From Octopus vulgaris (lineage: Eukaryota), in contig OX597821.1 of the NCBI GenBank assembly GCA_951406725.2, positions 57,722,001 to 57,786,000 on the forward strand: a stretch of 64,000 nucleotides of DNA, read 5' to 3'. Of this stretch, positions 2,168-30,900 are shown piece after piece (positions within the stretch are counted from its first letter, which is position 1; each line of letters begins with the position of its first letter). The notes under the pieces were generated by a model. The model saw only the letters and a list, made by a program, of their open reading frames with translations. It was not told the DNA's origin and did no database searches. Position numbers and translations under genes: made by a program.

Positions 2168-2653
2168 CCTGCCTTTTATATATACAGATGTATAATTATG
2201 AGTGTGTATGCGCGTGTGTGTGTGCCTGTGCGAGTGTGTGTCGCTTGAATATACATAAAGTGTATGAAAAATTAATTAGACGAGCACTGGACATATATAA
2301 AGATTAAATATAGTAAATATTTTAAAACTCATATATGTAGATATGTCTTTTATATACATGCTTCAGTATATCTATTATTTACTTATGTATGCGATTATGT
2401 ATAAATCTACATTTCACACATGCACCAAAACGAATACATACATATATGTTTGTATTTATTTATGTATGAGTGTACGCGTACGTACATATATGTATATATA
2501 TATATATATATACATATGTGTGTGTCTATATAAATACATATATATATCGTGATTATACTACTTATTCATAAGCTTATATTTGGGTGTGGTGTTTGGCAGG
2601 CAATATTTGTGTCAAAGTAACACAAGATTGTTGAAACAATGCGTGATACTTAC

Positions 2654-2781
2654 AAATATAATATTTACAAGTGATCAAATATCGATCTACACTGATAGCT
2701 GTGAGAAAGCCAATATTTGCTAGTCCAAACAACATCCCTGTGAAGCCATACCACTGACAACCAGTTGTACCAAAGATCCAC
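2654..2781 (-). CDS. RRH: Peropsin-like opsin (class A GPCR), internal exon encoding ECL1-TM3
   Basis: Translates to (V)WIFGTTGCQWYGFTGMLFGLANIGFLTAISVDRYLITCKYYI, with WxFG, the TM3 Cys, Tyr at the bovine-113 equivalent and DRY. Acceptor ctttttcag|G at 2782 and donor T|GTAAGT at 2653. The phase-2 start matches the upstream exon. Confidence 0.8.
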
Positions 2782-7045: not shown

Positions 7046-7208
7046 ACTCGTTTAAAACTTGATATCCCTGCAATTGGGAAGAGACAAAGACACATCCCAA
7101 TGTCATTAACAGCCAGATTAATAAACAACGTATTGGTCGGCGTTCTCAATGCTTTGTATATAGAGAACATGGATAGTACAATGCCATTTCCGAAAACTCC
7201 TATCAGTC
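7046..7208 (-). CDS. RRH: Peropsin-like opsin, internal exon encoding TM1-ICL1-TM2
   Basis: Translates to (G)LIGVFGNGIVLSMFSIYKALRTPTNTLFINLAVNDIGMCLCLFPIAGISSFKR(V), close to vertebrate peropsin YKELRTPTNAIIINLAVTDIG. Acceptor tttattgacag|GA at 7209 and donor GT|GTAAG at 7045. It splices in frame (GT+G = Val) to exon 2654-2781. Confidence 0.8.
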
Positions 7209-8661
7209 CTGTCAATAAACAGAAAATTATAGAAATGAAAATTGGAGGTATTTTTAGTCGAACACAGTGGATAGTTGACGTCAAAATGAAATTCTGTGTA
7301 AAGGAAAGTGTTATGCATATGATATATTTGATATGACAAGAGAGTGTAAAACTAGATATTATATAAAATGCATTGCTATGTGGTTAAGGAGTTCGCTTTG
7401 CAACCGCGTGGTTTCGAGTTCGGTCTCAATGAGCAGCACCTTGGACAAGTGTCTTTTACTATAACCCCAGGCCGACCACACCACCGTCACTAAATAAAGA
7501 AGGAATTCTACCATGGATTCAATACTTCAATACTCCGACAGTTGGAGAATGTCATAGATGTGATTGATCTTCAGAATTTGATTAGCACATTATTTTATCG
7601 AATTTAAATGTAAGGCAATGTTGATCATGGTGAGATTTAACTTATAACTTTAAAAAGAGTAATTAGTGTAAAAAACGCAAAACCTTTTGTCCCTTACTGT
7701 ATTGGTTCTGCTAATTTTCCTCTTTTCCCTGATTGAATAATAAAGAAATGTTAAGTATTGATTTTATTGGATTACATAACACTACGTTGCCACTTCGAGG
7801 AATTCGATTCCGTTTCTGTAAAATGAGAATAATTTTATATCGTATTTTTCAAATATACAAAGTTATTCTGATGCAATTACACCTAAGCATGGACTGTCAC
7901 CGAGACGTCCTCTGAAATAAAAATCAACAGGCTAGAAGTTACTTTATTTCAGAATAAAGTATATTCACGCTAAATATATTATGAATTTTGCCGAAAAGGT
8001 TTATACATAAGTACACACACACATACATACATACATACATACATACATACATACATACATACATACATACATACATACATACATACATACATACATACAT
8101 ACATGTGTGTGTATACGTATATGTATGTATATATAATAATAAATAATATATATGCATATATGGGTACAGGACGTCACCAACTGTGTAAACAACATGAAAT
8201 ACGTAGACAAATGAGTTAAATACGTAAGCAACGAGAGAGAAAAATAGAAAACAGGACAAGTAAAGAGAGAGAAACGACCCTTCATCAGTTGTCGGCTGTC
8301 TATCTACTCCTCATTTCGAGCATTCAACGACAATATGAGTCTTCAAAGACAGTTGCTCCCATAAATTCTAAAATAAAATTTAGGATTTATGGAGGGTCAA
8401 AGTTGGGGTAAAAACAGAACAGTGAAGACATACTAGAAAACTGAACGAAAACAAATATGAAGTGTCGTTAGACCACGAAGAGAGGAAAATAGTGAACGCT
8501 GGTAGAAATATTTTCTCTCGAAAGAGAAGAGATAGAAGAGAGAGAAAAAACGTCCAGTCCTTTGAACGTCGTGCAGAAAAGGAAAGATGGTCACGTGAGG
8601 AAAGGAAAGATGGACGATGGTCACGTTTGAGCAACAGGAGATAGAAAGATAGATAGATGGA

Positions 8662-8796
<135 letters not shown>

Positions 8797-9022
8797 GACA
8801 AGTATTCTCTGTATAGAGTGCACTTCGTAGTGCTCAAAAGATTTGAACTTGAACGGGTAAAGTTGTAAACGCAAGGACAAGCTAGTGAAACAAATTGATA
8901 TACAAAAAATATTAAATACGTCTAATGCATAAAATATACGTATGTATGCATATAAAAAAGTCCGATTTACACAGAATATAAATGATATCAGGAATTAAAG
9001 GGGTTGAGTAAAAGTTTTACGA

Positions 9023-9115
9023 GTCCAATAGCTGCTTCTGGGGGCTTGATTGTCCAAAATAATGATTGTAAATTGATTTCATCATCGAATACCACCAGCC
9101 TCCGTCTTCAGGGAA
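9023..9115 (-). ncRNA. Degenerate hammerhead motif with long stem II, in a PLE-type repeat (~9000-9330)
   Basis: ccCTGAAGA-cggaggct...66 nt...agccccca-GAAGC AGCT ATT-gga. The core has substitutions. A homologous copy lies at 13677-13800. Confidence 0.45.
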
Positions 9116-9439
9116 GAATTTTACATTTGAGGTGTTGATAGAATGAAGTTTAAAGATGGAATGATTTTATGGAGAAGTAAGTGTATTAGGAGTTGGTGGG
9201 GTTAGATAGAGAGTAGTGAGAGAAGAAAATAGATTTCGGGTTAGGGTTAATAATGTAGTTAATATTTTTCATATATCGAATTGCCTAACTTGCTTGTCTT
9301 TACATTTACTCCTATATACAGGATGCGTAAGATATTTGAGAACAGATTTATGATTATAAAATTCATATATGATAACATATCATATATATGATAACTTAAT
9401 TTATCGAAAAATCCTATGAAGATAAAAATAAACCTTCTT

Positions 9440-10540
9440 TTCTATAATGTTATTCAATAAAGCCACGTTCAGCTTCAACAACTACTATATGAGATCTAAA
9501 TCATCTACAAGCTCGAATCAAGTGATCCTGGTTCATTTTGGACATTGCTCTGACTATGGTAGCTTTCAAAAAATCTTTGGTGTTATGGGCATGTTCATTG
9601 ACCTCTCTCAACAACGCTTCACATGTAATAGTTCAATGGATCGAGATCTGGGGAATTAGGAGGTCAAATGTTAGGAGTTATGTGGTCATGAAAATGTTCA
9701 GCCATCCATTCCTGTTACTAGAGCCATGTGTGATAGTGCAGTGTCTTAATGAACCACACACGCCCTTCTATTGCATACACTGACCTATCCAGGGCTTAAC
9801 AATTGTTTCCAGAACCTCAATGTAGGCGACAGAGTTAACTCTAAGGCCTTGTGGAAAGAAGTATGGAGGCATCACATGTCCTTCATAGCTGACAGTCCGT
9901 AAAACCATGACAGTTGCAGGAAATTTTGCATGCATAACACTTGGAACTTTAGAAAAGTCTGCACATAACCCTCTGTCATTTTTTCTGTTAACTTTTTTTA
10001 TCTTGATCGAAGTTTTTCTCGTTTGAGAAAAACCAAATCAAATCTTCTTCTGCTGGATTTTTCAGTTTGTTTAAGAACCTTTTAGATCTGATGTAGTGAT
10101 TTTCTTTTGCTTTTTCTAACAAATTGAACTTTCCTAATTTCGTAAACAACATTTCTGACTGTTCCTTCAGACACATGAAATCTTTTGCAATTGACTTCAT
10201 GGACTTTCTGGGGTTGTAATCAAGGGCTTATTGACGTTGTTGGATGAATTCGGGTGTTCTGATGATTTCAGAGCAAGTAGAATGCTTTTTAGGCTTTGAT
10301 ACTGGTGATACGTTTCCATCTTCAGTCGCTAGCTCCTTACAAACTTTGTAAACGAAAGATCTGGCAACTTTAAAACATCGAAATATTTCTAAATCGCTAT
10401 GCTCAGCCTTTATAATCACAATAATAGCATGCCTCTTCATTTCTTAAAGCTGAGGGTCTGCCATTATTATTTTCTGAAACAAAGATTATACAGAATTAGC
10501 AAAAATGTAGCAATGACCCCAAAAAGGTATGTCCCCTCAT
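9440..10540 (-). mobile_element. Decayed Tc1/mariner-superfamily transposon (maT/DD37D-like)
   Basis: Fragments MKRHAIIVIIKAEHSDLEIFRCFKVARSFVYKV (HTH), LIWFFSNEKNFDQD and PPNSPDLDPLNYY, with stops and frameshifts. Confidence 0.8.
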
Positions 10541-10544
10541 AACT

Positions 10545-10630
<86 letters not shown>

Positions 10631-11685
10631 GATATGTATATGTGTATACATATATATATATATATATATACACATACATAAACAGAGAGGAAATAGGGGA
10701 GAGAAGACGAGAGAGAGAGAGATCACATCCTAATAATTGCTTAATAGCATTTTATATACCAAGCATCTTAATAGCGATATAGAAACCAAGTAAACGGTAG
10801 AAATAAGCATAAAGATTTAGAAATAGAAAAAGAGACGAAGAGAATCCTCAGAAGATATTCTTTGAGAAGTGTTATCTTTCTACTCTTAGACACGTCAATT
10901 AGATTTTACTGGAACACATCACTGGATGAATATTCCCTTGAGATTACATGAGACAATTATGGAATATCACTTTTTTTCCTATTTTTCTTCCTTTTTGTTT
11001 ACTCCTTTCAGAAATCATTATTTGTTATTTCGGAAGCTTCGGATTGAAAATAAGATTGGATTTCTGAAATTGTAGCAAACACGAGTATAATACAGAACAA
11101 CTGAACATTTTAGGTATAAAAAAATAATTGAGATAAAGTTAGATGTAACACGAAACTGCATTAGCTACTTGTAGTGCTTCAATATTCGACTAACTTTATC
11201 ATTTCTATTATTTAGTTTAATAGAGAGAAATATCATTTTTTTTTTCTAAATACCTGTTCAACATTTTGTTTAAAAGAGGGAAACAACTTTTTAAAAAAAA
11301 TTCAATATCATTTCTCTTTTAAATTCAAGTTTTTGATTAGCTCTCATGTTCAAGAACTTGCCTTTAGATAGAAATATACACATACATGACAATCAGTACA
11401 ACCTCCCATACTTGTTAAGGTTGGAATTTCAAGTTCTTGGAGGTTTCAATGTTTATTCTTTGACACGACTGATTCTAACGCTGGAACAAAAACTAAATTT
11501 AATAAGAGTTTTGGCGGCTTATTGAATCAATTTCAGCGTATTGCTGAAATCGCATACATATCTTTGTGTGTGTGTTTGTTGACATACACGTGCTCCAGCA
11601 TGGCCACAGTCTTTGGGCTGAAACATATAAAAGAAGTATAAGAAATATATATGCGTGTGTATACATATACACTCGAAGGGCTTCA

Positions 11686-11971
11686 ACACAGTTTCTGTCT
11701 TTTAAATTCACAATTCACACAAGGCAACGAAGATACTTGTGTATAGACGAAGATACTTGTTCAAGATAGTTGTGAAGTGGGATTGAACCTCGAAACCACG
11801 TTGTTGAAAAGTGAGCATCTTAATCACACAGTTTCTGTCTTTTAAATTCACAATTCACAGAAGGCAACGAAGATACTTGTGTATAGACGAAGATACTTGT
11901 TCAAGATAGTTGTGAAGTGGGATTGAACCTCGAAACCACGTTGTTGAAAAGTGAGCATCTTAATCACACAG
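11686..11971. repeat. 140-bp tandem duplication of a SINE fragment
   Basis: acacagtttctgtcttttaaattcac...gagcatcttaatc starts at 11686 and again at 11826, near-identical. Confidence 0.9.
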
Positions 11972-12398
11972 CTTCGTCTGCGCCTACGTCAAAATCCCAA
12001 AACGACTATCTATTTCTGGCAATTTAGGGCAAGGGAATCATCGATCATATCAGCCCCTTTGCAAGACTGCAACTTATTTTATCGAGCCTTCACGTTTTGT
12101 GTCCAAATTCCGATGGGACAATATTGTCTTTCGTCCTTTCGGGGGTCGCGAAAATAGATTCCAGCTGAGCAATACATATATATATATATATATATATAAT
12201 AGAAATATTAAAATTACTAAATCTCTCTAAAAGAGATTACGGCAGCGTTACTGGAAATTAATTGTTATCGCCATATTAATATGGCAGTCTTATAGATATA
12301 AGACTAAAGCTGTCGCTGATTAGCTCCATGAGGCCATCGCCTTAAGCTAGCTATTTGACACACAAACTGTGTCCATTATAACCTTCGAACAAGGGAGG

Positions 12399-12453
<55 letters not shown>

Positions 12454-12588
12454 ACATATAAACAAAGGCAAAAGGAAAAATTTCTAATGCCAAATATGCC
12501 GAAAATAGACTTAAATCGTCAATAACCATATAATTCATCACCATAAGCACGTGTCTCGAAGTAAACTGACAGAAATTTCTTAAAAATT

Positions 12589-12661
12589 CCGTTATTATCG
12601 TATCGGTCCCGATTTCAGAGTTAATTCATAAGAATTTTCTCCTCGTCAGCGATATAAACGG
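12589..12661 (-). ncRNA. Type I hammerhead ribozyme, well preserved
   Basis: ccgtttatatcg-CTGACGA-ggagaaaattcttatgaattaactct-GAAA-TCGG GA CCGA-TA-cgataataacgg. Stem I is TATCG/CGATA plus CCGTT/AACGG, stem II is GGAG/CTCT plus AATTC/GAATT, and stem III is ATCGG/CCGAT. Cleavage triplet AUA. Confidence 0.8.
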
Positions 12662-13057
12662 TAAGAAATAAATGAAATACTTACTTATACCCATGAAAGA
12701 AGTAAACACTAAGTCATGTGTATACTTAAGTACCTCAAATATATCCAAAATAGAAATTCTCTAGCACACTTCGAGACACGTGTGATCGGACTGAAAATTC
12801 TCATAGAGTGAGAGAGTCCGGAAGTGAATAGTATTAAATTTACATCTAATATAGGATAAAATTTTTCGAAAAAAATTTATATATATATATATAAGAAAAT
12901 AGTAAAGAGTGAAAAAACGACAGAAGGCTTAAATGTTAAAAAATATATATATTTGCGTCAAAATGTCTGGAGAATATTGGAAAAAATTTTTTTCCTTTCC
13001 TTAAAATGACATAATTTTATACTTTTTAAAGAAATACCAAACAAACTTTCTTATCTA

Positions 13058-13094
<37 letters not shown>

Positions 13095-13142
13095 ATATTT
13101 CGGAATGGTCATATTGCCAGTTTAGCCAATAAATATTTAAAC

Positions 13143-13211
<69 letters not shown>

Positions 13212-13558
13212 TGGTATTATTAAAATACCATCACGAGTGGCAAGTGAATTATCAGCCGTACAGGGGCAGAATTTTAATAGTAATTAGCTGGCAAACTTTG
13301 GCTGATGAGAAATCAGGCACCTATTTGATGCTAAATTTCGAAACCAGTACCAAGTTGACCAGTATTTACTTGTTCTGACCCAGTAGAGGTAAGACTTTAT
13401 AATTGTTCACTGAAATTTTTTCCTATCAAGTCTATAATGGACTTGTGACTATTCGGTGGTACAGAAGTATTTTTTTACTTCTATTCATTAGCGAAGTTAG
13501 TGCTCGTGTAGTGCCCTTGTGTATATATGTACATATCTAATATTGTATGTATATATGT

Positions 13559-13590
<32 letters not shown>

Positions 13591-13676
13591 CAAAGTTGTT
13601 TGGGAAATATATACATATATATTACACAAGGCACAAACGACAGAGAAAATTAACGGGGAAGATGAATGTTGTTATA

Positions 13677-13800
13677 AGTCCATCGGCTGTTTCTAGGGGC
13701 TCAGAGATCCATAATAATGTTGATAGATGTAATTAATCACAATATGGAGTCGTAATGGAAGCAAACAACATTGACTAAATCGAGCCTCCGTCGTCAGGGT
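13677..13800 (-). ncRNA. Degenerate hammerhead motif with ~97-nt stem II insert (same family as 9023-9115)
   Basis: ccCTGACGA-cggaggctc...gagccccta-GAAAC AGCC GAT-gga. The cleavage triplet is mutated. Confidence 0.45.
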
Positions 13801-15076
13801 AGAAAAGATCTTACATTTCAGATAATAATGCAGATAATTTCAAAGATGGAATCTTATATATTTATACTTGAATGTTCATCGTTCAACAACTCTCCACCTT
13901 TTGCTTCCTCTCGTTTTGCATGTGTACTTATATAAATATTTTGTATTTCATACCCAAACTGTTATATTTAATAAATCTAATATGTTTATCCGCATAACTG
14001 CCTCCATATCTGCTCAACTTGATCCCTCTTGTAGCCAGTCTTTACCCCGTGGAATTGAACCCCTGTACAGACAGCGGAATCTATGTTTGAATCATTTGAG
14101 CGCTGCTAAGAGAGAATCTCTGAAGGTCATCTGTTGACTATATACATATTCTTTTATTTTTTTATTTGTTTCGGTCTTCTTGATTGCGGCTATGCTGGAG
14201 CACCGCCTTTAATCGAACAAATCGATCCCATGACTTATTCTTTGTAAATCTAGTTCTTATTTTATCGATCGCTTTTGCCGAACCGCAAGTGATTCAATTG
14301 TAATCATTTAATTAACTTGGAGATTTGTACTTGTACCTTCTCATAGGTCGACTAGACTGAATGTATTTAGGAATGTTTAGACAATTACTGTTTGTCTAAT
14401 AAGATCATCGTTTGAAACTGTGGTGGCTATATCAGAAGATAGAATTAGTATTATAATTATATAATTGACGGTCAATGTTCTAGCCATTACCTCCGCTTAA
14501 CGGTTGTCTGTCCCTTGACCATAGTACCTTCTGCCGCATAGTGCTTGTTTACATGTTTGGTTGGTTTATTTATAACGTCATAAGCGACCTTGGGCCACTT
14601 ATAACATATGCTACTTCTCCATACTTTTACTTTTTTTTAACGACTTTTTTACATCTACCACTATAACGGTCTTAATAGCTCGCCCTTTGGTTTTTAAATT
14701 TAACTGACCAATTATATTGATGGCTGAACTTTGTTCAAATCCCATTACGGACAATAGATAGTTGGTCTTTATAATATATAAGCAAGTATATTAATGTAAT
14801 TAATTTATGGGCATGTTATTTGGATAAATATTAATTAGTACTAATTACGAAATCTTAAGTACTATATTTTTCTAGACCTTTTGGCGATTTCCGTTATCTT
14901 AAAGTACTTGTTTTATTCTTATTATTTCTACACCCAGTTACCCCTAAAGAAAGATTAACCCACCAATTAATTTTTAGTTGTCATTTGCTCAACGACTGAA
15001 AAATGGTATGATTCAAATATATTAAGCCTTCTTTTCTCATCTCGAGGCTCCTTTCTTTTAGTTTATGCATTTTACT

Positions 15077-15198
15077 TCACTCTGATGAAACTCGATGTAC
15101 CAAATCGGATGTGCTATGGAATATGACGAATATTATTCTCAGAATTTTGTTTTACAGCTCTGAGGAACAATGGAAGCAGAAACGGCTGTTAGATGTGA
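15077..15198 (+). ncRNA. Degenerate hammerhead motif
   Basis: GAAAC GGCT GTT agatgtga (15179-15198) is preceded by two candidate cores: CTGATGA at 15082 and acagct-CTGAGGA at 15160. Stem II is poorly paired. Confidence 0.35.
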
Positions 15199-15505
15199 TA
15201 AAGTTTTGTATTAAAAAATATTAATAGATGATAGTCAATGTTTTTGTTCAAGTATTTTTTCCATTTTCTGCTTAATTTAAATTTGATTCCTGATAAACTC
15301 TTGTTTATTTTGTTATTGCCTGTATCCCACGAGCATAATATGCTTGAATATGTAAGTCCAGGGTTAAACGCAGGTAATTTATACCGGGTAGTAAAAACGA
15401 ATATTCTTATCCCTTAGACGGTTATTCCAAACACTAACTCTACTAACCTATATATATAAAGTAAAGACTATTTGCCCACCTAATGTAGCAGTCCCGGTTG
15501 TGGGA

Positions 15506-15551
<46 letters not shown>

Positions 15552-15559
15552 ATAATAAT

Positions 15560-15886
15560 ATTAGGGAATAAATCCAAACTTACAGGGAAAAATTAGATTT
15601 AGGATTAAATCCAATTTTATAGTATAAATATTATATTATATTAAATTAGAGATAAAACCACTATTAGGCAAATCAAACAGTGAAAAACATAAGCCAATAC
15701 ATAAAATTATTTTTAAAATATAAAAGTTAAAAATTAAAAAAATATTAAAATAATTTAAACTTATAAATTTTAAATATATATATACAAATAGATATATATA
15801 TATATGAATGTATATTTTTATATTTATATATTATTTTGTTTATTAATTAATTAATTTATTTATTTTTTAATTATTTATTTATTTAT

Positions 15887-15918
<32 letters not shown>

Positions 15919-16574
15919 CAAAAGTATAAAAGTTTAATAAAAGATAAAGAGTAAAACACTACGATCGTTTCATGGCTGTACCAATTCGAATAACAATAAT
16001 TTAAATTCAGTTGATAATTCGAGTTATGGTTACAGTCAATCTTCAGGTTAATTGAAATATTTTTAAAATAATCAGAAATATTTAAACAATATTTTTAAGA
16101 TATAAATAATATAATTTTACTTATAATAAACTCTATTAACAAACTAGAAACTTAAAACTTAATAATTATGATTATATCAAAATCGATTATAATTTTAAAT
16201 ATTAATTTTAATTTTTAAGGTAAGAAACCCACCGATAATCTAATGTCAGTAATAGTCTATATCTAGTTACATAAATATTTTTTAAAAAATGACTAATATA
16301 TATAAAAAATTATCAATGGATATATATAAATGTATATGAATATTATAATTAAGATCTAAAATAATCTCTATAAATAAATATATATGCACATATAATAAAG
16401 ACCTAAATTTAAAGATGCACATATAATAAAGACCTATATTTAAAGATGAAATATCTAAATTCAAAAATACAAACAAACAAACTTAAACGAACTTTCGGAA
16501 ATCTTATTTAAAATACTTATAGAAATAATCATTTCGTAGTTGATTTGCCTAATAGTGGTTTTATCTCTAATTTA

Positions 16575-16585
<11 letters not shown>
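15560..16585 (-). mobile_element. PLE 3' end / pLTR with inverted partial copy, inserted in (TA)n
   Basis: Same terminus as 61755-61900 (ttagggaataaatccaaa.ttacagggaaaaa). About 45 bp at 15630-15675 is repeated inverted at 16540-16583. A minus-strand NYEMIISISILNKISE resembles the PLE endonuclease C-terminus. Contains a hammerhead. Confidence 0.65.
15957..16049 (-). ncRNA. Type I hammerhead motif with 68-nt extended stem II
   Basis: aac-CTGAAGA-ttgactgtaacca...tggtacagccat-GAAAC GATC GTA-gtg. Stem III has a palindromic GATC loop, the triplet is GUA, and stem I is short. Confidence 0.65.
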
Positions 16586-16610
<25 letters not shown>

Positions 16611-16949
16611 CATACATGTATATATAACTCTGTGTGTGTGTGTGTGCCTGCGCGTGCACGTGAGTACATACAATGGTTTAGCTGGCCGAAAATTCAAAGT
16701 GACTGCAACAACATTCTTGAATAAGAATAATAAACTTTTACTCTACAAAAGTATAGACTAATCCATCAGATTAATTTTAAATTATTGTTATTATAACTTA
16801 ACGGAAAAACAAACATTAATATATCATCATCACCACCACCACCACTACCACTACCACCACCACCATCACCACTACTGCTACGACGATGACATCGTTGTCG
16901 TATAGTAGCAGTAGTAGTAGTGGTGGTGGTGGTGGTGGTGGTGGTGGCG

Positions 16950-17005
<56 letters not shown>

Positions 17006-17679
17006 TTTTATCTTCTACCTTGTTAGTCACACATCGTAGAACTGTATTACATACTGATCTCTCTCATGGATATTTTAACTCGTAATGGAAATCAATAATT
17101 AATTAAAATATTAAATAAATGACAATGAAAATAGTAAATAAAATAAATACATAAAGTTATTCGAAACCAAACCATAATTAAATCATCAGACAACAATAAG
17201 TCGTTAACATAGCTTTGTTTATATCTAAAGGGAATTACAATATTAAATAAAAGTAAACGAAACGCTTTTCAATTTAACTTAGTGACTTTTAAGACACACA
17301 CATACACAAATGTTTATGTAAAGTTTGTCTCAATTGAACAGGACATGATGAAAACGAAGTGAGTGCATCAAGAACTAAATGTGCAGTTATTACCGAATTG
17401 ACGTTTGTAAGATGAAATATTGAAGTAGAAACAGATTGTTGGTATCATTCTTGATATCATTCTTGCTAGAGCAAAGTGTGAAATTCTAAAAGAGAGCTAC
17501 GTGTGTCGCTCGCTGGTATCAATAGGGTTTTTGATCTTCAATTTCTTTTTTACATGTTTCAGTCATTGGACTATGGCTATGCTGTAACGCTTCCTTGTAG
17601 AGTTTACAAGTACTTCTTTTTAAAGTCTGGTACTTCTTCAGTCAGTGCCTTAAACTGAACCGCTAAGTTACGAGCACGT

Positions 17680-18295
17680 AAACAAATGAGTTTGCGAGAA
17701 TAGAGAGAACAGCAGATGTCAACTCGGGATTTGCGGTTGCTTTCGGACAACTTATGAGGCAACCATTTTCCCAGTTTAGGAACCTTTGCAAGTTGTTGAA
17801 GATGACGATGAACAGTTGTATGGTTTGAACTAAACTTTATTGCCAATTCTTCAACTGATAATGCAGGATTTTCTTCAAGTAATGCTTCAAGGAGCTTATC
17901 ATCAAAATCAACCGGACGTCCTGTTCGATCTTCATCTTGACGGCTGAAATCTTCACTTCTGAATTTTGCAAACCATCTTCTGCAGGTTCTTTTATTCAAG
18001 CATTCTTTCCCATAGACTGAGTGTATATTTCGAGTCACTTCGGCTGCAGAATTTCCTTTTTTGTACTCATAAAGCATTATGTGCCTCAAATGCTCTTTGG
18101 ATACTTCCATGTTAGAAAGGGTTTTAATCAAAGAAATTTTAATTCTATTATTCTGTAAAATAATATTTAATTAGTTGAAATGTACACAAATGCATAAAAA
18201 TAATTTTTAATTCCTTAGACATTCTAAAATACTATTAAATTTCATTCAATTTTAAAAAAGGTAAAATCGGACAAAACTTATGGGGTGACTTGATA
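17680..18295 (-). mobile_element. Mariner element, 5' half (HTH region of the transposase)
   Basis: MEVSKEHLRHIMLYEYKKGNSAAEVTRNIHSVYG...RRWFAKFRS...KLGKWLPHKLSE. The 5' TIR tatcaagtcaccccataagttttgtccgatttt lies at ~18263-18295. Confidence 0.9.
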
Positions 18296-18296
18296 T

Positions 18297-18900
18297 TAAC
18301 ATATCGCTTGGATTTCTTCACCATTTTCCACTTAATTGTATGTGGTGTGAAGCTGCTCTTTAAATTCCATACGTGGCTAACCGTCTTAGTTGCATCACTT
18401 TTATCGATGTGCCGAAAAGAAGATAGGTAGCTTGCATAACGTCTCTTGAATTTTCCACCACATAACCCGATGTAATTCTTCTTTTCTGTTGATTTGTCTG
18501 GGTGCGTAGCTGTAACTTCAGCCTCGTATATGACGGAATTTATCATACACGCCTGGTGAAGTGGGCAAGCTTCTGGGTCTCGACAGTTACAACTGAGAGT
18601 GGTCTCTTGGTGGGTTTTGCGAGTTATAATGTTCTTCATATTGAAGCAGCAACTATTTGATACTTTTACTGAGCGTTAAAAAATTTCCTGTGTTTATGAT
18701 TTAATAGTTAATGTACCTACGTTAGTCTTAACATTAAGGAAGAAAGGAAGGACGAACCAAATTGTTTTCCTAGATCTTTTTTTTTTTTATCTATTTTTAC
18801 GATTCATATTTTTACATAGAGTTATAATATATTTTATCTTTGAAGCCGTTCTGAACTAGGGCATTTTTATAATATTTGTTCAGAAGAATATTATAAGAAT
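18297..18900 (-). mobile_element. Penelope-like element fragment (linker plus GIY-YIG endonuclease)
   Basis: CNCRDPEACPLHQACMINSVIYEAEV...NYIGLCGGKFKRRYASYLSSFRH...VWNLK...IKWKMV, preceded by RKTIWFVLPF..NVKTNVG. Truncated at the mariner TIR. Confidence 0.9.
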
Positions 18901-19168
18901 CACTCAATCCCCGAAAGTCCTTCTCAACACATAGCTATGATGCTCCCCCACTAATCCTGCTCGTGATCAGAAATACATATATTGTCAGTCATTAAGGGAC
19001 ATGCTCAAATGATTATGGTCAAGCAACGTACAAGCAAATCTGTGGTATTGAGCAAAATATTTGCTGTAGCCCATCTTTTGCAAACCATCTTCTGCAGGTA
19101 CATGTTAACATTTCTAACTAGTTAAGATCGGAAGTCATGAAATCCACTGCCTGGTATTGCATCAGAGC

Positions 19169-19266
<98 letters not shown>

Positions 19267-19352
19267 ATAATAGTAGTAGTAGAAGAAGAAGAAGAAGAAG
19301 AAGAAGAAGAAGAAGAAGACTCCAATTAAAAATAGAAGAGAACACACATACA

Positions 19353-19383
<31 letters not shown>

Positions 19384-19898
19384 TCACACACACTCACATA
19401 CACACATACAACTATATCCCTCACAACCACCCACGCGCAGTGGCATTCAGCCCAAAGCATACCCTGAGCAAGCAGTTTGGGATTTCTTTGAAACTCTTCC
19501 CTGACTTCGCTGTTCTTAACCTTGGCAAATAATAATTTCTAATTTAGGCTTTGAGCCAATAATTTCGAGGGGATTGCGATGCAATCTAGAGGAACGCAAT
19601 TAAATACTTCGAGTCATCTTTACTACGCTCTAATGACTCTGTTAATCCACAAAATGATAATTATTATTAGTTTGGGTGAAAAAATTCAATTATAAATCAG
19701 ATATTTCAAATGCTTGTGTAAGGAGGGAGAGAGAAGGGGGAAGAGTAAGAGTTCGTGTTTGCGTGTATGTGTGTGAGTGAGTGTGTGTATGTATGTGCGT
19801 GTGTCAGATTATGAGCGTGTGTGGTTTGTGAGGGTATGTGAGAGAGTGTATGTTGTGTTTGCGTGAGCAAGTGTGTGTGTGCACGCCTGTGTATGAGT

Positions 19899-19951
<53 letters not shown>

Positions 19952-20229
19952 TTTGTCTGTGTGTAAGCTTATGAGTGTGTTTGTGTGTGTGAGTGTGAGT
20001 GTATATATGTGTGAGTGCCTGCTTGCTTGTGTGTGTGTGCATGTGAGTGAGATTTCGTATTTTTTGGGGATGCCGAAGATGACCGCCTGAACCAAAATGA
20101 AAAACCCACACTGCAATAAATTATGCGGATGTGTGAAAACATGAAAATATGCGCAACTGTTTGATTTTAAAGGGCTGGTAAATTATTTTGAAATTTAAGA
20201 AAAAGAAAATATTGTGTTTTAGAGAAGTA

Positions 20230-20714
20230 AGCAAGGAAGTACTTTCGGATTTTTCAGCTGGATTAGGAGATGGACACCAAGATGAAGGACAAAATGACAC
20301 CAGAGTACATTAGAATGTACACACAAGTAACTCGTCAGTATGGACAGAAAAATTTAAAAAGACAGTGGCCATGCATTAGTGCCTTCACACTAGAAGTAAT
20401 TTAGCAAGGCTTTATCTACAAAGGAATGGAGATGGAAAATATGTGTGAATTGTGGAATTAACAAAGAAACAATTGGTCAGCATGAAGAGAGGAACTAAAA
20501 ACATAACGGCCATGCCTTTATACTAAAAGTAATTTTGCAAGGATTTATGCACGGCTGTATGGTAAGTAGCTTGCATATCTGCCACATGGTTCCGTGTTCA
20601 GTCCCACTGCGTGGCACGTTGGCCAAGTGTCTTCTACTATAGCCTCTGGCCGACCAAAGCCTTGTGGGCGGATTTGGTAGACGGAAACAGAAAGAAGCCC
20701 GTCGTATATATATG

Positions 20715-20752
<38 letters not shown>

Positions 20753-21660
20753 GTGTGAGTGTGTGCGTGTGTGTGTGTGCGTGCGTGCGTGTGTGTGTGC
20801 GTGCGTGTGTGTGTGTGTCTGCATTTGTCACCCACTTGACAACCGGTGCTGGCGTATCGACGCTCCCGTTACTTAGCGGTTTGGCAAAGGAGCCCGATAG
20901 AATAAGTACTAGGCTTACAAATGATAAGTCCTGGGGTCGATTTGTTCGACTAAAGGCGGTGCTCCAGCATGGCCGCAGTCAAATGACTGAAACAAATAGA
21001 CGAATAAAAGAATAAGGAAGGCAGAAATAAAAGGATTGACTGGAGTAGAGAAGAGTGTTAGAAAAATGGGGAAATCATTTCATGCCTGATTTTAAGGAAC
21101 GTGTTGCTTGGATGTGGTGGGTTGCACTGGGTGAGAACCTCTATGAGTACGAACGAAGGACTCATGAGAAAGAGATGAGCAACTGGAAAGAGAAAGGTCT
21201 TACAATGGAGAGTTTGTCCGAAAAATATCTGACGTAAAAATTCAGGATCAGTCCTTCAGTCTTCTTTAACAATTCAGGTCAGTAATTCTGGTGATGAGTG
21301 ACATGGATTTTTAAACTAAATTAAAAGGTTGATCCCTTCTGCTGAAGTCTTGCGAACTAACACAATCAAGTGCAGCATTTATATATGACAGTAGAAACAC
21401 CTAAAATGTGTAGAAATGCACCTGAAGATAATTTAACTGCATTTACATTGCAAAGACAAAAAAAAATGAAAACTCTAAAAGATGTCAAGACCTGACATTT
21501 AAAGTGGAGCGTGTTCATAGAGCCTCAACTACGAGTAGGATACCCATCGTGATTGGCTCCATTGAAATCATCGAAAACAAAATCCTGCGCTGAAAAGTTG
21601 AAACTACCAGACGTCATTGGAAGTATAGGCTGTCTGTCAATATTAACGCTTTCTTGAAGA
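20230..21660 (+). mobile_element. Highly decayed non-LTR retrotransposon relic (R4/Dong-like RT C-terminus), interrupted by a SINE
   Basis: MDRK...MH*CLHTRSNLARLYLQRNGDGK near 20340-20440 resembles the HP.SDVDRLYLPRKEGGRG motif. L.TNTIK...C..C lies near 21350-21420. Confidence 0.5.
20545..21015 (+). mobile_element. Composite SINE copy
   Basis: Collinear with 5437-5955. Confidence 0.85.
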
Positions 21661-22801
21661 TATCACGTTAGTACATATGCGAGTATGTGTATATGTGTGA
21701 GTGTGTGTGTGTTTGTGTGTGCTTGTGTGTGTATGTCTGTGTGTGTGCAGGAAACTGTATGTTTAATATAGTTGCCTTTATTATAATTCTATTCTATATA
21801 TTGAGAGGGTCATTCTGTCAATAAAAATACACGATTTGACTGTATTTTACTTCTTTAATATATGCGTCGAGGTGTTTGTCTACAAGTTTCTTTGTCCGGT
21901 CATTAAACAATGGCTGTGATTTTGGTAACGGTCGATGTAGCAGTAATAGCTGTAATGACAGCGCTGAATCTATATGTCAGTATATGTGCGTGCATGTATG
22001 TGGTGTGTGTGTGTATGTGTGTGTGTATGTGTGTGTGTGTGAGTGTGTGTGTGTGTGCGTGTGCGCGCGCGCTGTGTATGTGTATTGAATGTGAGGTTGT
22101 GCCATAGCATGGTCGAAAACCAGTGACTGAAATAATTAAAAGAATAACATAAATATGGTTGTGTGTGTTTGTATGTATGTATCTTTTACTTACTTCAGTC
22201 AGCCGTGTCGGAGACCCGTCTTTGGGAGTTCAGTCAAGAAAATTGACCCCAGTACATATTCTTAAAAAGTCTGGTGCAAATCCTATCGTCTGCTTCTGCC
22301 GAACTGCTGTGTTACGCGACGCAAGCCAACACATATTGTCAATCAGTGGAAGGGGACAAACACAAAGACACATACACACATATATGTATATATAAATATG
22401 TATTTATATTATATTGTTTCAATAATTAGACTGCGGTCATGATGAAGTAGATGGGCTTCCACATAGTTTCCGTCTACCAGATTTATTAACAAGGAATTTG
22501 TCGGTCCGGGGTTATTGTAAAAGGTACTTGCTCGACGAGCTTCTTAACTACGCGAGGTGTAGTGTTATTGAATGTGTGTAATAAGAAGTCTAAGCTTTAG
22601 ATTAATAAACGGACAGACTGATGCAGACGATGCTAAGAAAGATATCGGAAAGTCAAGAATCAAAGGAAGATATTCCTCTCCATCTCTCTTCCACCCCTAT
22701 CGATCATAATCAGTCATTATCTGCTGCTGCTACAACTAATTTGAATCCGGTTCAGTCGATACAAATATGAAAAATACATCAAACTGAAACGAAATAAACA
22801 A

Positions 22802-23026
22802 TTGGGTTGTCCGGAAAGTTCGTGCCGATTTATAGTATCTTACCTTTAGACTTACCCTCTCAGGCACCTCAATTCTGGGAAGAGGGTATTTTCAAGTTAA
22901 AGGAAAGATGGAGACGCATTGTGCAACAAAATGGTTCATATTTGGTTGATTAAAACTGTTATGGCAAGTAGTTATTGACCTTTTTCTTTCCTTTAAAAAT
23001 CGGCACGAACTTTCCGGACAACCTAA
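22802..23026 (+). mobile_element. Internally deleted mariner (MITE) of the 4378-4717 family
   Basis: Both TIRs are present (ttgggttgtccggaaagttcgtgccgattt / aaatcggcacgaactttccggacaacctaa). The 3' ~160 bp is nearly identical to 4560-4717. Confidence 0.9.
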
Positions 23027-24050
23027 TAAATAAAAGCAAAAAGCACAATCGAGAACAGATACTCATAGACGTGCAGCATTATGCGCACGTTATGTCATCG
23101 TTACGACGTACACACACACGAACGCATGCGCACACGCATTCACTCAGACAAAAAGGACATGGCACCAAACTTAGCTTCATCTCCATCATCCTAATGACTA
23201 CTGCTACCCTTCTAACCAAACCACCACTACCGCTGCCGCGGCCGCAACAGCCACCGCGGCAACAGCAACAACAACAACTGGACAAAGAGATCAAAATGCA
23301 GTCACGCCAACCTCATTGAAAAATAAAAAGATTTCCAGAGAAAAACTGTGATACAACAATGAACACCGAGGCAAAATTCAAACATTTCGTGCAGTTTGAT
23401 GGACAGAGTGACTCTACCAAAACACAACTCACTCTCTCTCTCTCTCCCTCATTCTCTTACACGCTCGAGTGCTCACACTTCCATATACGCACATATATGT
23501 GCATATTTATATGTATTTATGATACGATATGTATCGCATTGTATTTTGAAATACAGTGTTATGCCCCGGATTTCAAGTTGTATACGTGTATATGTTTTGT
23601 ATGGTGCATTTGAGATTGCTAAATTCCATTCCATTAAAGGCTTTACTTCAATGGGTCCAATCTAATAAATTTTTGAAGTTTTCCATTCAGCTCATTACAC
23701 TAGAAATAACTCTTATTGCATTGCACTTGTGTGCGTGTGTGTGTGTGTGTGTGTGTAACTCTTACAAGGTTAGTACTGTAGCTTTCTTGGGAAATTCATC
23801 TTATTTTCAGGAAAGGTATTTTACTTGGTCTATCAAGATTTTTGACTTTTTAGCGAGGTTTGCGTGGCTTCATTTTTTTTCTTCTGTCTGCAGTGGAGAT
23901 GGTGTTGTCTGTTGTTGTGCTGGTGTTGGTGGTTGTGGTTAGAGGAGTAGCAATAGTCATTGTGATGGTGGAGGTGAAACATTGTTCGGTGCCATCTACT
24001 TTTCTTTGAGTGAGTCTGTACGAGCGTGCCTGACTTTGTACGCGCCTCTC

Positions 24051-24112
<62 letters not shown>

Positions 24113-24712
24113 TGTGTGTGCGTGTGTGTGACTGTGTGTGTGAGTCACAACGATCTGCACTAAGCCCGAAAGATTGTTTGGAGATACATGGCATATTATA
24201 CAATTCTGCCAATTTATTGTATCTCTGAAGCATGAAACTATTAGTACCGCTTTTGTAAATTTTGTATATTAAATAATATTTATCTCTCACTGGAGGGAAG
24301 CATTTTTTGTTGATCCTACCAATAACGGAACTGTAAATTATGTATGTATGTATGTATGTATGTATGTATGTATGTATGTATGTATGTATGTATGTGTGTG
24401 TGTGTGTGTGTGTGTGTTTGTGTGTATGTATGTGTGTGTGTGTGTGTGTAGCATGTTTGTATATCAGAGTTTTGCACTGTATCCTTATTTGACTTAGGAG
24501 ATATAGGGGACTCAAGATTATGATAAAAACACTTGCTCAAAAATATTTCATGGTAGGATCGAATTATGTGACTACGAACTGAAATTTCGAATCGCATAAG
24601 TTCATCTGCTCTAATACTGGTAATCTTATTGAACTAGATTTCGCTGAACTAGATACTGTCACTATGATTGTCTATTTATATATATATGTGTATATATATA
24701 TATATATATATA

Positions 24713-24751
<39 letters not shown>

Positions 24752-25083
24752 GCTTATATATATATATATCTAAACATATTTACATACAGATACATAAGCG
24801 TACACACATACACGCACGCACACAGTCACACACACACATATCTCCAATTATTTGATATTCCATCATATCCAATTATGCTATCACATCCAATTATCAAAGA
24901 TGAATAATATATCTCACGTTGATATATGAATGTATGTATATATGTATGTATGTATTTAAGTATGTATACATATATACATACTTATATGTACATATAAGTA
25001 TGTACATATATACATATGTGTGTGTGTTTGTTTGTCTATATGTAAATGTATGCATATATGTATATGTATATATATATATATTG

Positions 25084-25132
<49 letters not shown>

Positions 25133-25639
25133 GCATATATATTTGTTGTGCAAGATTTTTTATGAGAAGTCGTGTGATGAAACAGATATTGTTATATTTC
25201 GGAATGGTCATATTGCCAGTTTAGCCAATAAAAACACACGCACTATATATTTGGTGTTATTTTGCTTCAGTGTTATTTATTTATTACATTAATCTTAATC
25301 TTATTTCGGCCAGAGTTCTTCCGTCACACTCCTGTGACCCGCATCAGTGGTCCTTTGTTTTCTTCTTTCTTACTTGTGTCTCTCCTTACTAACCGTCAGC
25401 CATTTTGTATTTCTATTGTACGTCTTCATTTGCGCATGCTTATATCTCTATGTGCGTCTATGTTTATTTAGTGTGTGTATGTGGGGGGATGCCTGTAATA
25501 TTTGTATCTTCTGTTTATATATGTTCATGTAATTTGTATTTTGTTTTTTGTTTTTGTTGTTTTTGTTTATTCTTATTTTGTTCATGTGTTTACATCCACT
25601 TATTATTATCATTACATATGCTTGTATGTATGTATGTAT

Positions 25640-25725
<86 letters not shown>

Positions 25726-26189
25726 GGAGATAGAGATGCATATACATAAATATATATTTACTCAAAATATTTATCAAAATTCCCTTATCAATATAAGAAT
25801 TATCTCTAGATCATTTAAGAATGTTAAGAAGATATATTGCCTTCTTTGAAGCAGTGACCAAGTATATTCTTTAGTCTTGTCCCTATGCGTGTTCATCATA
25901 TGTCTGGATAGATAGATAAAATGGCGGATATCTGCAGGTACATACACATACAAAGAAAAATGTTAACATAGGTAATTTTCACAAATCAAATTTCAAGTAC
26001 ACTAATAGGTATATAGATATATAAAGTATAGTTGTGTATATGTGATGTAGTCTGAGAATATATCCACAAATAGGAAACAAAAAGAGGCTATTCGGGAAAA
26101 CAGTAGCTTTACTTAGTTGCAGCCCGTAAACAGTCAGTAACCTATTTTGATGAAGCTGGCAAACCAGATGCACCCGATATCTTTTATCT

Positions 26190-26590
26190 ATCATCTTTTA
26201 TCTTTTACGTGTTTCAGTCATTAGGCTGAGGCCATGCTGGGGCACCACCTTGATATTCTAGTCGAATGAATCGACCCCAGTACTTATCTTTTAATCCTGG
26301 TGCTTATTCTATCGGTTCCTTATGCCGAACCGCTAAGTTACGGGGACGTAAACACACCAATATCCGATTGTCAAGTGGTGATGGTGGAGGGGAGACAGAC
26401 AGACACACACATAGACGTGTATATATTTATATACGACGGGCTTCTTTCCGTTTCCCTCTACCATATCCACTAACAAGACTTGGGTCGGCCCGAGGCTATA
26501 GTAGAAGAGACTTGTCCAAGGTTCTACACAGGGGGATGAACCCGGAACCATGTGGTTGGGAAGCAAGCTTTTTACCACACGGCTACTCTT
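26190..26590 (-). mobile_element. Composite SINE copy
   Basis: Reverse complement of the 5437-5955 family. Confidence 0.8.
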
Positions 26591-26821
26591 GAAAATAGTA
26601 TTTCATCAGAAAATATACATTTTCTATCGAATATTATGAGCTTCCACCTTGGCTTCTAAGTTTCTCGACTGACAGCTTGATCATCGAAAAGCAAAAAGAA
26701 AGAGCTGTAAACAGGGGTGAGTATTAAACTTTTGAAAGTAAATTTAAAAAAGAAACTGAAAGATTTTCAGTATTTCTGGATACATGCTTTAAGAATGCTT
26801 AAAAGAAAAAGGAAAACGAAA

Positions 26822-27364
26822 GCAAGGTCACTGCTTTGCACAGCATTTCTTTGTTCTTAGAACTTGTTTTTTTTTTCTTTTGCAGGAATTTGACTTGTTG
26901 AAAGATATGAGAATTTATATCCAAACTTCTCTGTTCATATGGGAAGTGCAGTCATTCAATGACACATTCGTTACACGATTCACTTACCGAAGTTGTAATC
27001 TTATAAGCATAGACTGCGTAATTCAACAAAGATACGACAGTGATCCGCGAGTTTCGTCAGAAGTAATTTTTTCAAATTCTTTCAACTGTGGTCTGATAAA
27101 CGGTAAATAATGTTCCTTTGTTGTATTTGAGTAAATAGCATATAATTCCATCATATAATTCATGTCGTAACGAGATGCCATTTAAAGATGCAGTTTTAAT
27201 ACATTCCTCTGGCAAACAATTCTTTATCTGCATTTCCTTCTCGCTAGGCTTCTTGTGGAGTGAAAGAAGGAATAATTTTCAATGATCCCTCGCCATTATT
27301 AATTAATTTACATATGTCCATGTATGATTCCTTTCGCAACACTGTTCAGTGTAACCAGTTTAAA
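26822..27364 (-). pseudogene. hAT-like transposase fragment, left arm of an inverted duplication
   Basis: Reverse complement of 28162-28690, with scattered substitutions and small indels. Confidence 0.6.
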
Positions 27365-27644
27365 CAAAAAATCTGTGTAAGATGGTAATTCTTTAGAACC
27401 ATGGGAGCATAATTGGAGAGGGTGGCAAATATATTTTTATGAGTATCAAGGTTAGATTATTTAATTTCATTAATGTATATAGAAGATTATTGATGACACC
27501 CACAGAGGTTTGACGCTCGGTCAATCGCAGCAGCAAATCTCCCCTCCAATGTTTTGCTCTCTCTCTCTCTTACTCTTTCTGTACATACATATGTGTGTGT
27601 GTGTGTGTGTATCTAAACTTATAGGATTAAAAATTATATAAAAC

Positions 27645-28050
27645 TGTAGGAGTGGCTGTGTGGTAAGTAGCTTGCTTGCGAGCTACATCATTCTGGGTTC
27701 AGTCCCTCTACGTGGCACCTTGGGCAAGTGTCTTCTACTACAACCTCGGGCCGACCAAAGCCTTGTGAGTGGATTTGGTAGACGGAAACTGAAAGGAGCC
27801 CGTCGTATATACGTATATGTATATATATGTGTGTCTCTGTGTTTGTGTGTCTGTGTTTGTCCCCCCCACCTTCGCTTGACAACCGATGCTGGTGTGTTTA
27901 CGTCCCGGTAACTTAGCAGTTCGGCAAAAGAGACCGATAGTACTAGGCTTACAAAGAATAAGTCCTGGGATCGATTTGCTCGACTAAAGGCGGTGCTCCA
28001 GCATGGCCGCAGTCAAATGACTGAAACAAGTAAAAGAGTAAAGAGAGTAT
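27645..28050 (+). mobile_element. Composite SINE copy in the spacer of the inverted duplication
   Basis: Collinear with 5437-5955. Confidence 0.85.
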
Positions 28051-28161
28051 TAAGCATTCTCTTTTGTCAATAACTCTTCTTCCGAAGCCTGAAATTCGGG
28101 GAGAGGGGAAGTAGATTGTATCGACCCTAGTGCTCAAGTGGTACATATTTTATCGACTTAT

Positions 28162-28690
28162 TTTAAGCTGGTTTCACTGAACAGTGTTGCGAAAGGAATC
28201 GTACATGGACATATGCAAATTAATTAATAATGGTGGGAAACCATTGAAAATTATTCACTCTTTCACTCCACAAGAAGCCTAGCGAGAATGAAATGCAGTG
28301 GAGTGTATTAAAATTGCATCTTTAAATGGCATCTCGTTACAAGAAGAATTATGTGATGGAATTATATGCTATTTACTCAAATACAACAAATGAACATTAT
28401 TTACCGTTTATCAGACCACAGTTGAAAGAATTTGAAAAAATTACTTCTGACGAAACTCGCGAATCACTGTCGTATCTTTGTTGAATTGCGCAGTTTATGC
28501 TTACAAGATTACAACTTCGGTAAGTGAATCGTGTAACGAATGTGTCATTGAATGACTGCACTTCCCATATGAACAGAGAAGTTTGGATATAAATTCTCAT
28601 AACTTTCAACAAGTCAAATTTCGTCAAAAGCCAAAAAAACAACTGCTAAGAACAAAAAAAAAAACACGCTGTGCAAAGTGGTAACCTAGC
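28162..28690 (+). pseudogene. hAT-like transposase fragment, right arm of an inverted duplication
   Basis: Plus-strand frames give LINNGGKPLKII..TRSLAR..LKLHL*MASRYKKNYVMELYAIYSNTTNEHYLPFIRPQLKEFEK, resembling the PLKI..TRWL..W..LKLHF..LYL.FL.P.L region of hAT-type transposases. Confidence 0.6.
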
Positions 28691-30067
28691 AAAAGATAAA
28701 AGGCAAAATCGGCCTCGTTGGAATTTTGTCCTGCATGTAAACGATTCTACCAGCCCGCTGCCTCATATCTTGTCGATAATAAGGCGATTTGAACCCCGCA
28801 CATACCAATAGTCGTGCAGAAGCATTACGGAAAATCAAGTTGCATTGTTATTGTCTTGAAATCAAAATATGCAAATGTTTTAGCAGCAAAAATGTGCAGT
28901 TTTAAATCTCCACAAAATTCGCATTTGTTTCACGATTAATTTGTCAAGCATTTAGATGGATGAATTTCGTCTGCTGACAACCAGCATATAAACTTATGTC
29001 GATACTTCTTTTAGTTGATATTCCCGGTGAGAATCAAGGTAGAAGAAACCTGAATAATTTTCATTCTCAAATTACTGCTTAAAGAATTCAAGTATATGTG
29101 TACATGTGTACGTACAGCTCTGTCTTTATTATTATATTCATGTATATACACATTCATATATATATGCATTCTCGCATAAGTTGGATATATACGAGTCTAT
29201 GACAACGTGTTTGTGTGTACATATTTTTCTGTATGTTTGAATGTGTATATGTATGTTTGTGTACGTATTTGTGTGTGTGTGTGTATTTGTATATTTGCTT
29301 GAATGTGAGTATGAAAACGTCATTGTGTAGTTGCATGTGTATGGATGTTTCTATACAGCTCTATAACCCTGCATATGTTTTCACTCATGGATTCGAAAAA
29401 AAAAATTAACGATAGAACAACATACAATGAAATTTCTCATATTTTCTACATTTTAAACAGTAACAATGCTTCCAGGGATGAACCAAGAATAAAAATGCTG
29501 TCACTTACTATGCTACAAATCTCTGTACATGTTGTTTTATACATGTTTTTAAATGAGAACAAAGTGGATTATATAAAACGTAAATAAGTTACATTTTTTT
29601 TATCAATTTCTCTTCAGTTTTTCTTTTCTCTATTGTACTTATATCGGAAATATTTCACGAATATTTTGTATTATCAAATGTATTGTACAATTAGAGAAAA
29701 AAAAACTGGTAGAGTGTTTAAAATGTAAAAGTACTCGATTAAACATTATACGGTATCCTGCTTCGTATGTCTATGCGACGAGTTTCATTTTGCGAAACTG
29801 AGTTAGAAATTAGCCCTCGCGACCACGGAGTTCCGTGTTCGATTTGATTGCCTGGCTTTTGGGGAAAATGTATACTGATTTAGCTTCGCGTTGATCAATG
29901 CCTGCTGTAATGAAATATGGCAAACAGAAATGGTTACGGAAGTCCATTGACAACGTGAATAAATACCAGGATAAAGAAGTAAGGTTGCAGTCTAATGACT
30001 AAAATAAGTAATATATATATTTTTAAACACACCATGAGATTTTTGGAAACTTGGTTAAAGGAAGAAA

Positions 30068-30146
<79 letters not shown>

Positions 30147-30659
30147 GAGGTGCTTTCTCTTACACACAAACACACAAAATTTTCAACATCCTACGATTAA
30201 TGACCGATGCCTGATGGGGATGAAAGCGCTCAAAAAATTAATTCTGACTACCTTCTTTATTAATATACACACATACATACATACATACATACATACATAC
30301 ATACATACATACATACATACATACATACATACATACATACATACATACATACATAATTTACAGTTCATACATACATACATACATACGTACATAATTTACA
30401 GTTTACATACATACATAGCCAGCCGAAATTGCAAAGATAATCTGAAACTCGACTGAAGATGGAAACCTCCAAATGATCCGTCCTTGTTTTCCTTGTATCG
30501 TCTGTCTGGATATTTTGTTTTCCTTTCTTTGTTTCACCTGTCTGGATGTTTTGCGTTCTTGTCCCATTTTTGTATTTTTTATATACATACATACATACAT
30601 ACATACATACATACATACATACATACATACATACATACGTACGTACATATATATGTATA

Positions 30660-30894: not shown

Positions 30895-30900
<6 letters not shown>
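30660..30900 (-). mobile_element. SINE 3' body, minus strand
   Basis: ttcttttacttgtttcag..atttgattgcggccatgctggaaca...; reverse complement of the dominant family. Confidence 0.75.

Follow-up and report, generated by a model that had tools for sequence, protein, structure and literature searches.

Conserved hammerhead ribozymes of amniote introns are found in sense orientation within long introns, a few kb before an exon, and are deeply conserved, low-copy loci. Metazoan retrozymes have been described as low-GC tandem units that carry type I hammerheads, and a mussel, the mollusc example among them, holds about 5,000 copies of 350-390 bp (Cervera and de la Pena 2020, PMC7229834). According to a preprint by Li et al. 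(bioRxiv 10.64898/2026.07.22.740005), non-LTR retrozymes were derived from the pseudo-LTRs of Penelope-like elements. Penelope-like elements are in turn described as showing 5' truncation, partial tandems, inverted 5' copies, a 30-40-bp tail, and a bias towards microsatellites (Craig et al. 2021, PMC8557442).

We analyzed a stretch of Octopus vulgaris DNA of 64,000 nt, hereafter the window, in which positions 12661-12589 of the minus strand form a type I hammerhead motif. We consider it highly probable that this motif is the hammerhead of a dispersed repeat family with a unit of about 475 nt, likely a non-autonomous Penelope-like element, and that the window holds a truncated copy that lies in a TA microsatellite of intron 1 of the peropsin gene and is probably a neutral passenger there. 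The observations behind this explanation are that the motif belongs to a family whose unit length, dimers, and trimer were seen, that copies have inverted 5' pieces, tails, and ends in TA repeats and lack an ORF, and that the motif is intronic and in sense.

The repeat family and its relation to retrozymes

The initial annotation regarded the hammerhead as stand-alone, but the motif sits inside a copy of about 430 nt of a high-copy dispersed repeat. A 381-nt query around the motif matched 39 other loci at 88-93% (40 of 3,164 candidates were scored), and an exact 34-mer of the repeat has 90 occurrences genome-wide, 45 on each strand, while the control has 0. The repeat unit measures about 475 nt (477 nt in one measured unit), has a GC content of 30%, is non-coding, and carries one type I hammerhead; no reading frame was found within or joined to the copies examined. 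Contigs of the family are abundant in the sequencing runs of three organisms, and their summed depth in run X18 is about 1,600-2,400 times that of unique flank, a figure that hints at thousands of copies but is not a copy number.

Sequence common to the family spans approximately 12877 to 12447 of the window on the minus strand, and similarity may extend to about 12893. This element (12447..12877) amounts to about 0.9 unit, with one ribozyme and no ORF. It is flanked by a (TA)23 tract at its 3' end (12401..12447) and by a short (TA)n tract at its 5' end (12878..12901); with TA repeats at either end, a target-site duplication is not readable. The ends of other copies also join (TA)n-type repeats. 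A different high-copy repeat adjoins the element at 12900-13035 (-). Loose contig ends show other copies of this neighbor extending into a hammerhead core, of which they contain the 3' half, and its copy in the window starts within a few bases of the predicted cut site of that core.

Tandem arrangement was assessed at 29 loci retrieved with a junction query, which had been picked for tandemness (L147 was left out as it overlaps L146). These loci contain 14 head-to-tail ribozyme pairs at a spacing of 451-478 nt, as well as one trimer. In a separate comparison of 29 loci, by our own count, an adjacent inverted piece is present at 10, and a 3' tail that repeats the first ~43 nt of the unit is likewise present at 10. 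Both ribozymes are intact in one of the 14 direct pairs (L150). With its single ribozyme and about 0.9 unit, the window copy is a derivative monomer and not an active two-ribozyme locus.

The partial tandems, inverted 5' pieces, tail, and microsatellite targets of the family are insertion traits of Penelope-like elements, and the family is likely a non-LTR retrozyme or non-autonomous Penelope-like element. Like the metazoan non-LTR retrozymes, it has a unit that is non-coding, low in GC, and bears a single type I hammerhead, and it occurs as monomers, dimers, and one trimer in a genome that holds Penelope-like elements. Its unit slightly exceeds the 150-450 bp of the first report and falls inside the 51-972 bp given in the preprint (bioRxiv 10.64898/2026.07.22.740005). 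Unlike those retrozymes, the octopus copies are mostly dispersed 1-1.5-mers with inverted 5' pieces, and the copy in the window is a sub-monomer that carries one ribozyme. The family also shares its type I motif and palindromic stem III with the hammerheads described for Penelope-like pseudo-LTRs (PMC4209133, PMC8557442), together with the partial tandems, inverted 5'-truncated pieces, a 30-45-nt tail, and microsatellite insertion; unlike the pseudo-LTRs, it is without a reading frame, and no partner was found in the searches described below. Most metazoan forms have a stem III of 1-2 bp; the octopus stem III exceeds this and is nearer to that of monomer-competent fungal and protist forms. The family thus adds a cephalopod example to the known animal retrozymes or non-autonomous Penelope-like class, and the occurrence of Penelope-type integration scars (inversions, tails, and TA targets) on a retrozyme agrees with the proposed Penelope-like origin of retrozymes. 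We found no description of octopus hammerhead retrozymes in the literature searched, and in its main text the repeat annotation of O. vulgaris uses neither "hammerhead" nor "ribozyme", although the family may stand in repeat libraries under another label.

No autonomous partner sharing the repeat was identified among 60 endonuclease loci, 30 from each of two Penelope-like groups, drawn from 14,426 and 18,431 first-look candidates. Similarly, 18 flanks of 9 kb and three of 10 kb around repeat copies contained no protein-coding partner. Penelope-like frames that lie near copies at three loci (L065, L080, and L171) were rejected as the partner because they end in unrelated sequence. The frames at L065:1-2540 (-) and L080:6700-7700 (-) represent another Penelope-like family, with a reverse transcriptase followed by a C-terminal GIY-YIG domain, and the 3' repeat of this family has a hammerhead-like fold in which, read by eye, the core letter at position 4 is changed. 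At locus L106, a ribozyme of the same build as that of the octopus repeat (AUA triplet, long palindromic stem III, and bipartite stem II) lies about 250 nt past a C-terminal GIY-YIG frame and about 200 nt before a (TA)n tract; its architecture is alike, and it has no sequence match to the repeat family. A young Penelope-like family (L111-L140) gave 150 scored matches at 95-100% amino-acid identity, with many open frames of 784 aa, and no hammerhead was found within 1.5 kb of its frames at any of the 30 loci.

For the spread of the family, we propose that tandem source copies would be transcribed and would self-cleave once per unit at the AUA triplet, yielding unit-length RNA that may be circularized. 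Cleavage of source copies could proceed as a monomer or, through the palindromic stem III, as a dimer of the kind described in PMC4209133. A Penelope-like reverse transcriptase/GIY-YIG endonuclease, acting in trans, may then insert copies of the RNA at (TA)n tracts. In the genome, the copies continue across the cut site and stop ~100-260 nt past it; a linear cut monomer would thus not serve as the template, which would instead be circular or a multimer left uncut. When folded as a circle, one natural monomer of the repeat reached a z of only -1.5. The window copy cannot release a unit because it has only one ribozyme; if the intron is transcribed, this copy could make a single cut in the pre-mRNA, probably a slow or partial one, and such cleavage would be unselected.

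Anatomy and predicted fold of the motif

A strict hammerhead scan returned a single match in the 64-kb window and 0 in 200 controls (second-order Markov copies of 64 kb each, both strands), and the motif exceeds chance expectation. Rfam hammerhead models gave 0 matches in the window at the gathering score. Another candidate, at window position 148, failed the stricter scan and was dropped. The motif at 12589..12661 (-), recognized by the scan and a constrained fold, has a CUGAnGA/GAAA/NUH core and three helices and is open at stem I. Its C3-A9 segment is CUGACGA (12649-12643), its G12-A15.1 segment is GAAA (12616-12613), and U16.1 and A17 correspond to 12602 and 12601, giving an AUA triplet with a predicted cut after A17 at 12601 (-). 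The core had been described as intact from the letters alone, and this is borne out, as is the bipartite build of stem I (5 bp, a 2x2 internal loop, and 5 bp) and of stem II (4 bp, a 2x2 loop, 5 bp, and a 4-nt loop). The 5-bp stem III that had also been described does not form within one molecule. This stem is quasi-palindromic, and in the constrained fold of the monomer it comprises 4 bp and a GGAC tetraloop; the fifth pair appears only in the two-molecule fold, and within one molecule it would need a 2-nt loop.

The minimum-energy fold of 12589..12661 is not a hammerhead, as CUGA of the core pairs with the 5' strand of stem III. In all seven sequence contexts, ranging from 73 to 701 nt, the hammerhead ensemble is predicted to lie 1.6 kcal/mol above the lowest fold, by energies that leave out tertiary contacts and thus neither prove nor exclude hammerhead activity.

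The pairing registers are kept across 60 distinct core-intact copies of the family, with two-sided changes between subfamilies, and in stem III these changes involve C-G (22), U-G (21), and U-A (15). Such two-sided changes are consistent with selection on source elements; some are at CpG, and decay may explain part of them. A U-U opposition at U1.7 (58 of 60 copies) and an A-A opposition next to stem II (57 of 60) are family traits. A subfamily seen at loci L014, L022, L023, and L078 is marked by an AUU triplet, present in 7 of 60 copies, and by a C-A opposition at the base of stem II, present in 6 of 60. Because several copies share these changes, the subfamily must have spread in that form.

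Position within the peropsin gene and predicted cleavage

The opsin gene in the window is peropsin, as its exon peptide shows full identity to a protein of 325 aa to which NCBI gives the name peropsin, Octopus vulgaris. The exon downstream of the motif had been labeled TM1-TM2; it does reach TM2, but it begins in mid-TM1, so that it is coding exon 2 (7046..7208, minus strand, with an AG acceptor at 7210-7209). Coding exon 3 lies at 2650..2781 (-), with an approximate lower end. The cut site lies upstream of exon 2, at a distance of 5,392 nt from its start (7208), and on the same strand as peropsin, which matches the sense position about 5.4 kb upstream given in the initial annotation. A location in the first intron had been made conditional on an exon 1 further upstream, and the modeled coding exon 1 (C8:57991791-57991689) lies 262 kb upstream. 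On this gene model, the motif is in sense orientation within intron 1, which is ~262,480 nt in all and occupies 7209..64000 (-) of the window, with exon 1 outside it. The peropsin coding region covers ~359 kb (G000:C8:57632608-57991791), of which intron 1 accounts for 262 kb. This intron also holds several long LINE-like frames.

If the real transcript started at an unmodeled exon nearer to exon 2, the motif would never be part of the peropsin pre-mRNA. The exon 1 gene model is probably not independent of this assembly, intron 1 is very long, and P0003 is without exon 1, all of which would fit such a start. Nevertheless, the modeled exon 1 encodes residues 1-34 exactly and ends in G|GTAAGT, so that joining it to exon 2 (window position 7208) yields a complete Gly codon in a phase-matched GT/AG junction, and these residues have no other match in the window. 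We therefore give a nearer start almost no credence and retain the position of the motif within intron 1.

A looser scan of 284 kb covering intron 1 detected four hammerhead motifs, two in sense (12649 and 61964) and two in antisense (13302 and 62018). All four are inside the window, and none was detected in reversed or complemented controls. The window copy is the sole copy of its repeat family in the 284 kb scanned. The motif at 13302-13349 (+), antisense to peropsin, has a long stem II and a stem III of only 2 bp, and likely belongs to another Penelope-like family. The motifs at 61930-61964 (-) and 62018-62052 (+) are an inverted pair of identical minimal hammerheads with a palindromic stem III, one of which is also in sense within intron 1; they lie beside remnants of a Penelope-like reverse transcriptase and GIY-YIG endonuclease at 60046-61410 (-).

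Cleavage of the window copy as a monomer is plausible because of its 4-bp stem III, its unpaired U1.7, and the A beside the closing pair of stem II. A tertiary contact between U1.7 and an A of loop II is described in PMC11875169, and, as read from the sequence, U1.7 and the A beside stem II are a candidate for such a rate-enhancing contact. The copy might accordingly cleave fast, sever an appreciable fraction of the peropsin RNA during its synthesis and ahead of exon 2, and lower the mRNA without being under selection. This would fit a motif that has an intact core as well as these features and is in sense within the intron, 5.4 kb before the acceptor. The predicted ddG of the active fold is also 1.6 kcal/mol here compared to 2.0-5.1 in the four of four sister copies folded, and splicing is reduced by intronic ribozymes that are fast (Fong 2009, cited in PMC10919898). 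However, the inactive fold is predicted to be the more stable, and where the contact as described involves a tetraloop, stem II here has an internal loop. The mussel retrozyme ribozyme is reported to cleave at only ~0.1/min (PMC7229834) and eight of nine Xenopus retrozyme dimers failed to cleave according to the preprint (bioRxiv 10.64898/2026.07.22.740005), and intronic ribozymes that cleave slowly left splicing unaffected (Fong 2009, cited in PMC10919898). Overall, we regard fast, unselected cleavage as unlikely.

At the mammalian rate given in PMC10919898, a polymerase needs ~1.5 min for 5.4 kb, and it would probably need longer in a cold animal. If the sense copy cleaved as a monomer within minutes, before exon 2 is made, it could set the yield of peropsin mRNA and act as a transposon-donated timer comparable to the CPEB3 ribozyme. 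We consider this very unlikely; were it true, many further copies of the family that lie in sense within introns could be understood on the same model. Splicing of peropsin may be affected to a small degree, a selected effect is unlikely, and the locus would gain greater weight only if cleavage measurably alters peropsin output. A break in coverage at ~12601 had been suggested as a check for cleavage. A low-depth bin does cover the cut site in the putative RNA run X1 (121, compared to 752 and 390 beside it), but we rejected this dip as evidence because it was not reproduced in X6 or X13; X11 was too shallow. The private letter of the window copy at 12655 occurs in no contig of three putative RNA runs, which says nothing on silence. 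Likewise, no RNA run was listed with sequence from 7000-13000, an outcome that carries no information on expression.

Conservation, age, and surroundings of the window copy

Of 57 copies examined, 27 are equally intact: besides the window copy, these comprise 12 of the 33 that the similarity search supplied and 14 of the 23 taken from loci selected because their core is exact. Rare changes occur at 7/348 core positions (2.0%) and at 257/8,824 positions elsewhere (2.9%; p 0.41), and decay in the cores of the family resembles that in other parts of the repeat. Against the majority letter of each alignment column, the window copy has 22 differences over 381 positions, a level similar to that of its sisters (mean 5.1%), and its eight private changes are spread evenly, with two in the ribozyme (p 0.65), in neutrality tests whose power is low (12 core positions and eight private changes). 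The initial annotation had implied a gene-specific role; this role is not supported, as the motif came with the retroelement family as cargo, many copies match it in intactness, and the low-power tests show no conservation after insertion. Little suggests that the window copy is special, and its sequence gives no sign of retention to regulate peropsin.

The two private substitutions in the ribozyme are at 12657 and 12655 (12655..12657, minus strand); they are shared by none of 29 aligned copies and are rare in the DNA run X18. Together they shift stem I from the 6+4 bp of the family to 5+5 bp, while the helix stays closed and U1.7 remains unpaired. This preservation of stem I would be expected if the insertion had been retained and tuned, through the stem I shift, to time cleavage against peropsin splicing. 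Such a regulator would resemble the HDV-like ribozyme of CPEB3, which is also in sense, a few kb (9.9 kb) upstream of the next exon, and in a long intron (PMC10919898), and the window copy is the only one of its family in the 284 kb scanned. However, the CPEB3 ribozyme is described as a deeply conserved, low-copy locus, whereas the octopus motif is one of many copies, has no conservation signal in either the copy itself or the family core, and diverges from the column majority to the same extent as its sisters. Approximately 43% of Xenopus retrozyme copies are reported to be intronic (bioRxiv 10.64898/2026.07.22.740005), and sense intronic matches are expected by chance, because intact copies are many genome-wide and introns are very long. 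We thus consider an exapted regulator extremely improbable and favor a neutral passenger.

The Jukes-Cantor distance of the window copy is 0.05-0.06, or 0.02 if only private changes are counted, which corresponds to a rough age of 15 million years on the scale given in PMC13282606, and less by the private changes. For the insertion junctions in organisms A, D, and E, no listed contig spans one, and high-copy repeats make up the flank on either side. One X18 contig skips 487 nt (12346-12834), but this gap mismatches the ends of the element and was not counted as an empty allele.

The window contains several other repeat-derived features. A fragment of a Mariner-type transposase helix-turn-helix domain (PF17906) adjoins a GIY-YIG-like fragment at 17604-18170 (-) and 18235-18675 (-). 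Inverted arms of 344 nt at 26868-27211 and 28296-28639 are 95% complementary and 1,084 nt apart, and are possibly a DNA-transposon derivative. Near-perfect tandem arrays are located at 35234-35893 (184 nt x 3.6) and 11686-11979 (140 nt x 2.1).
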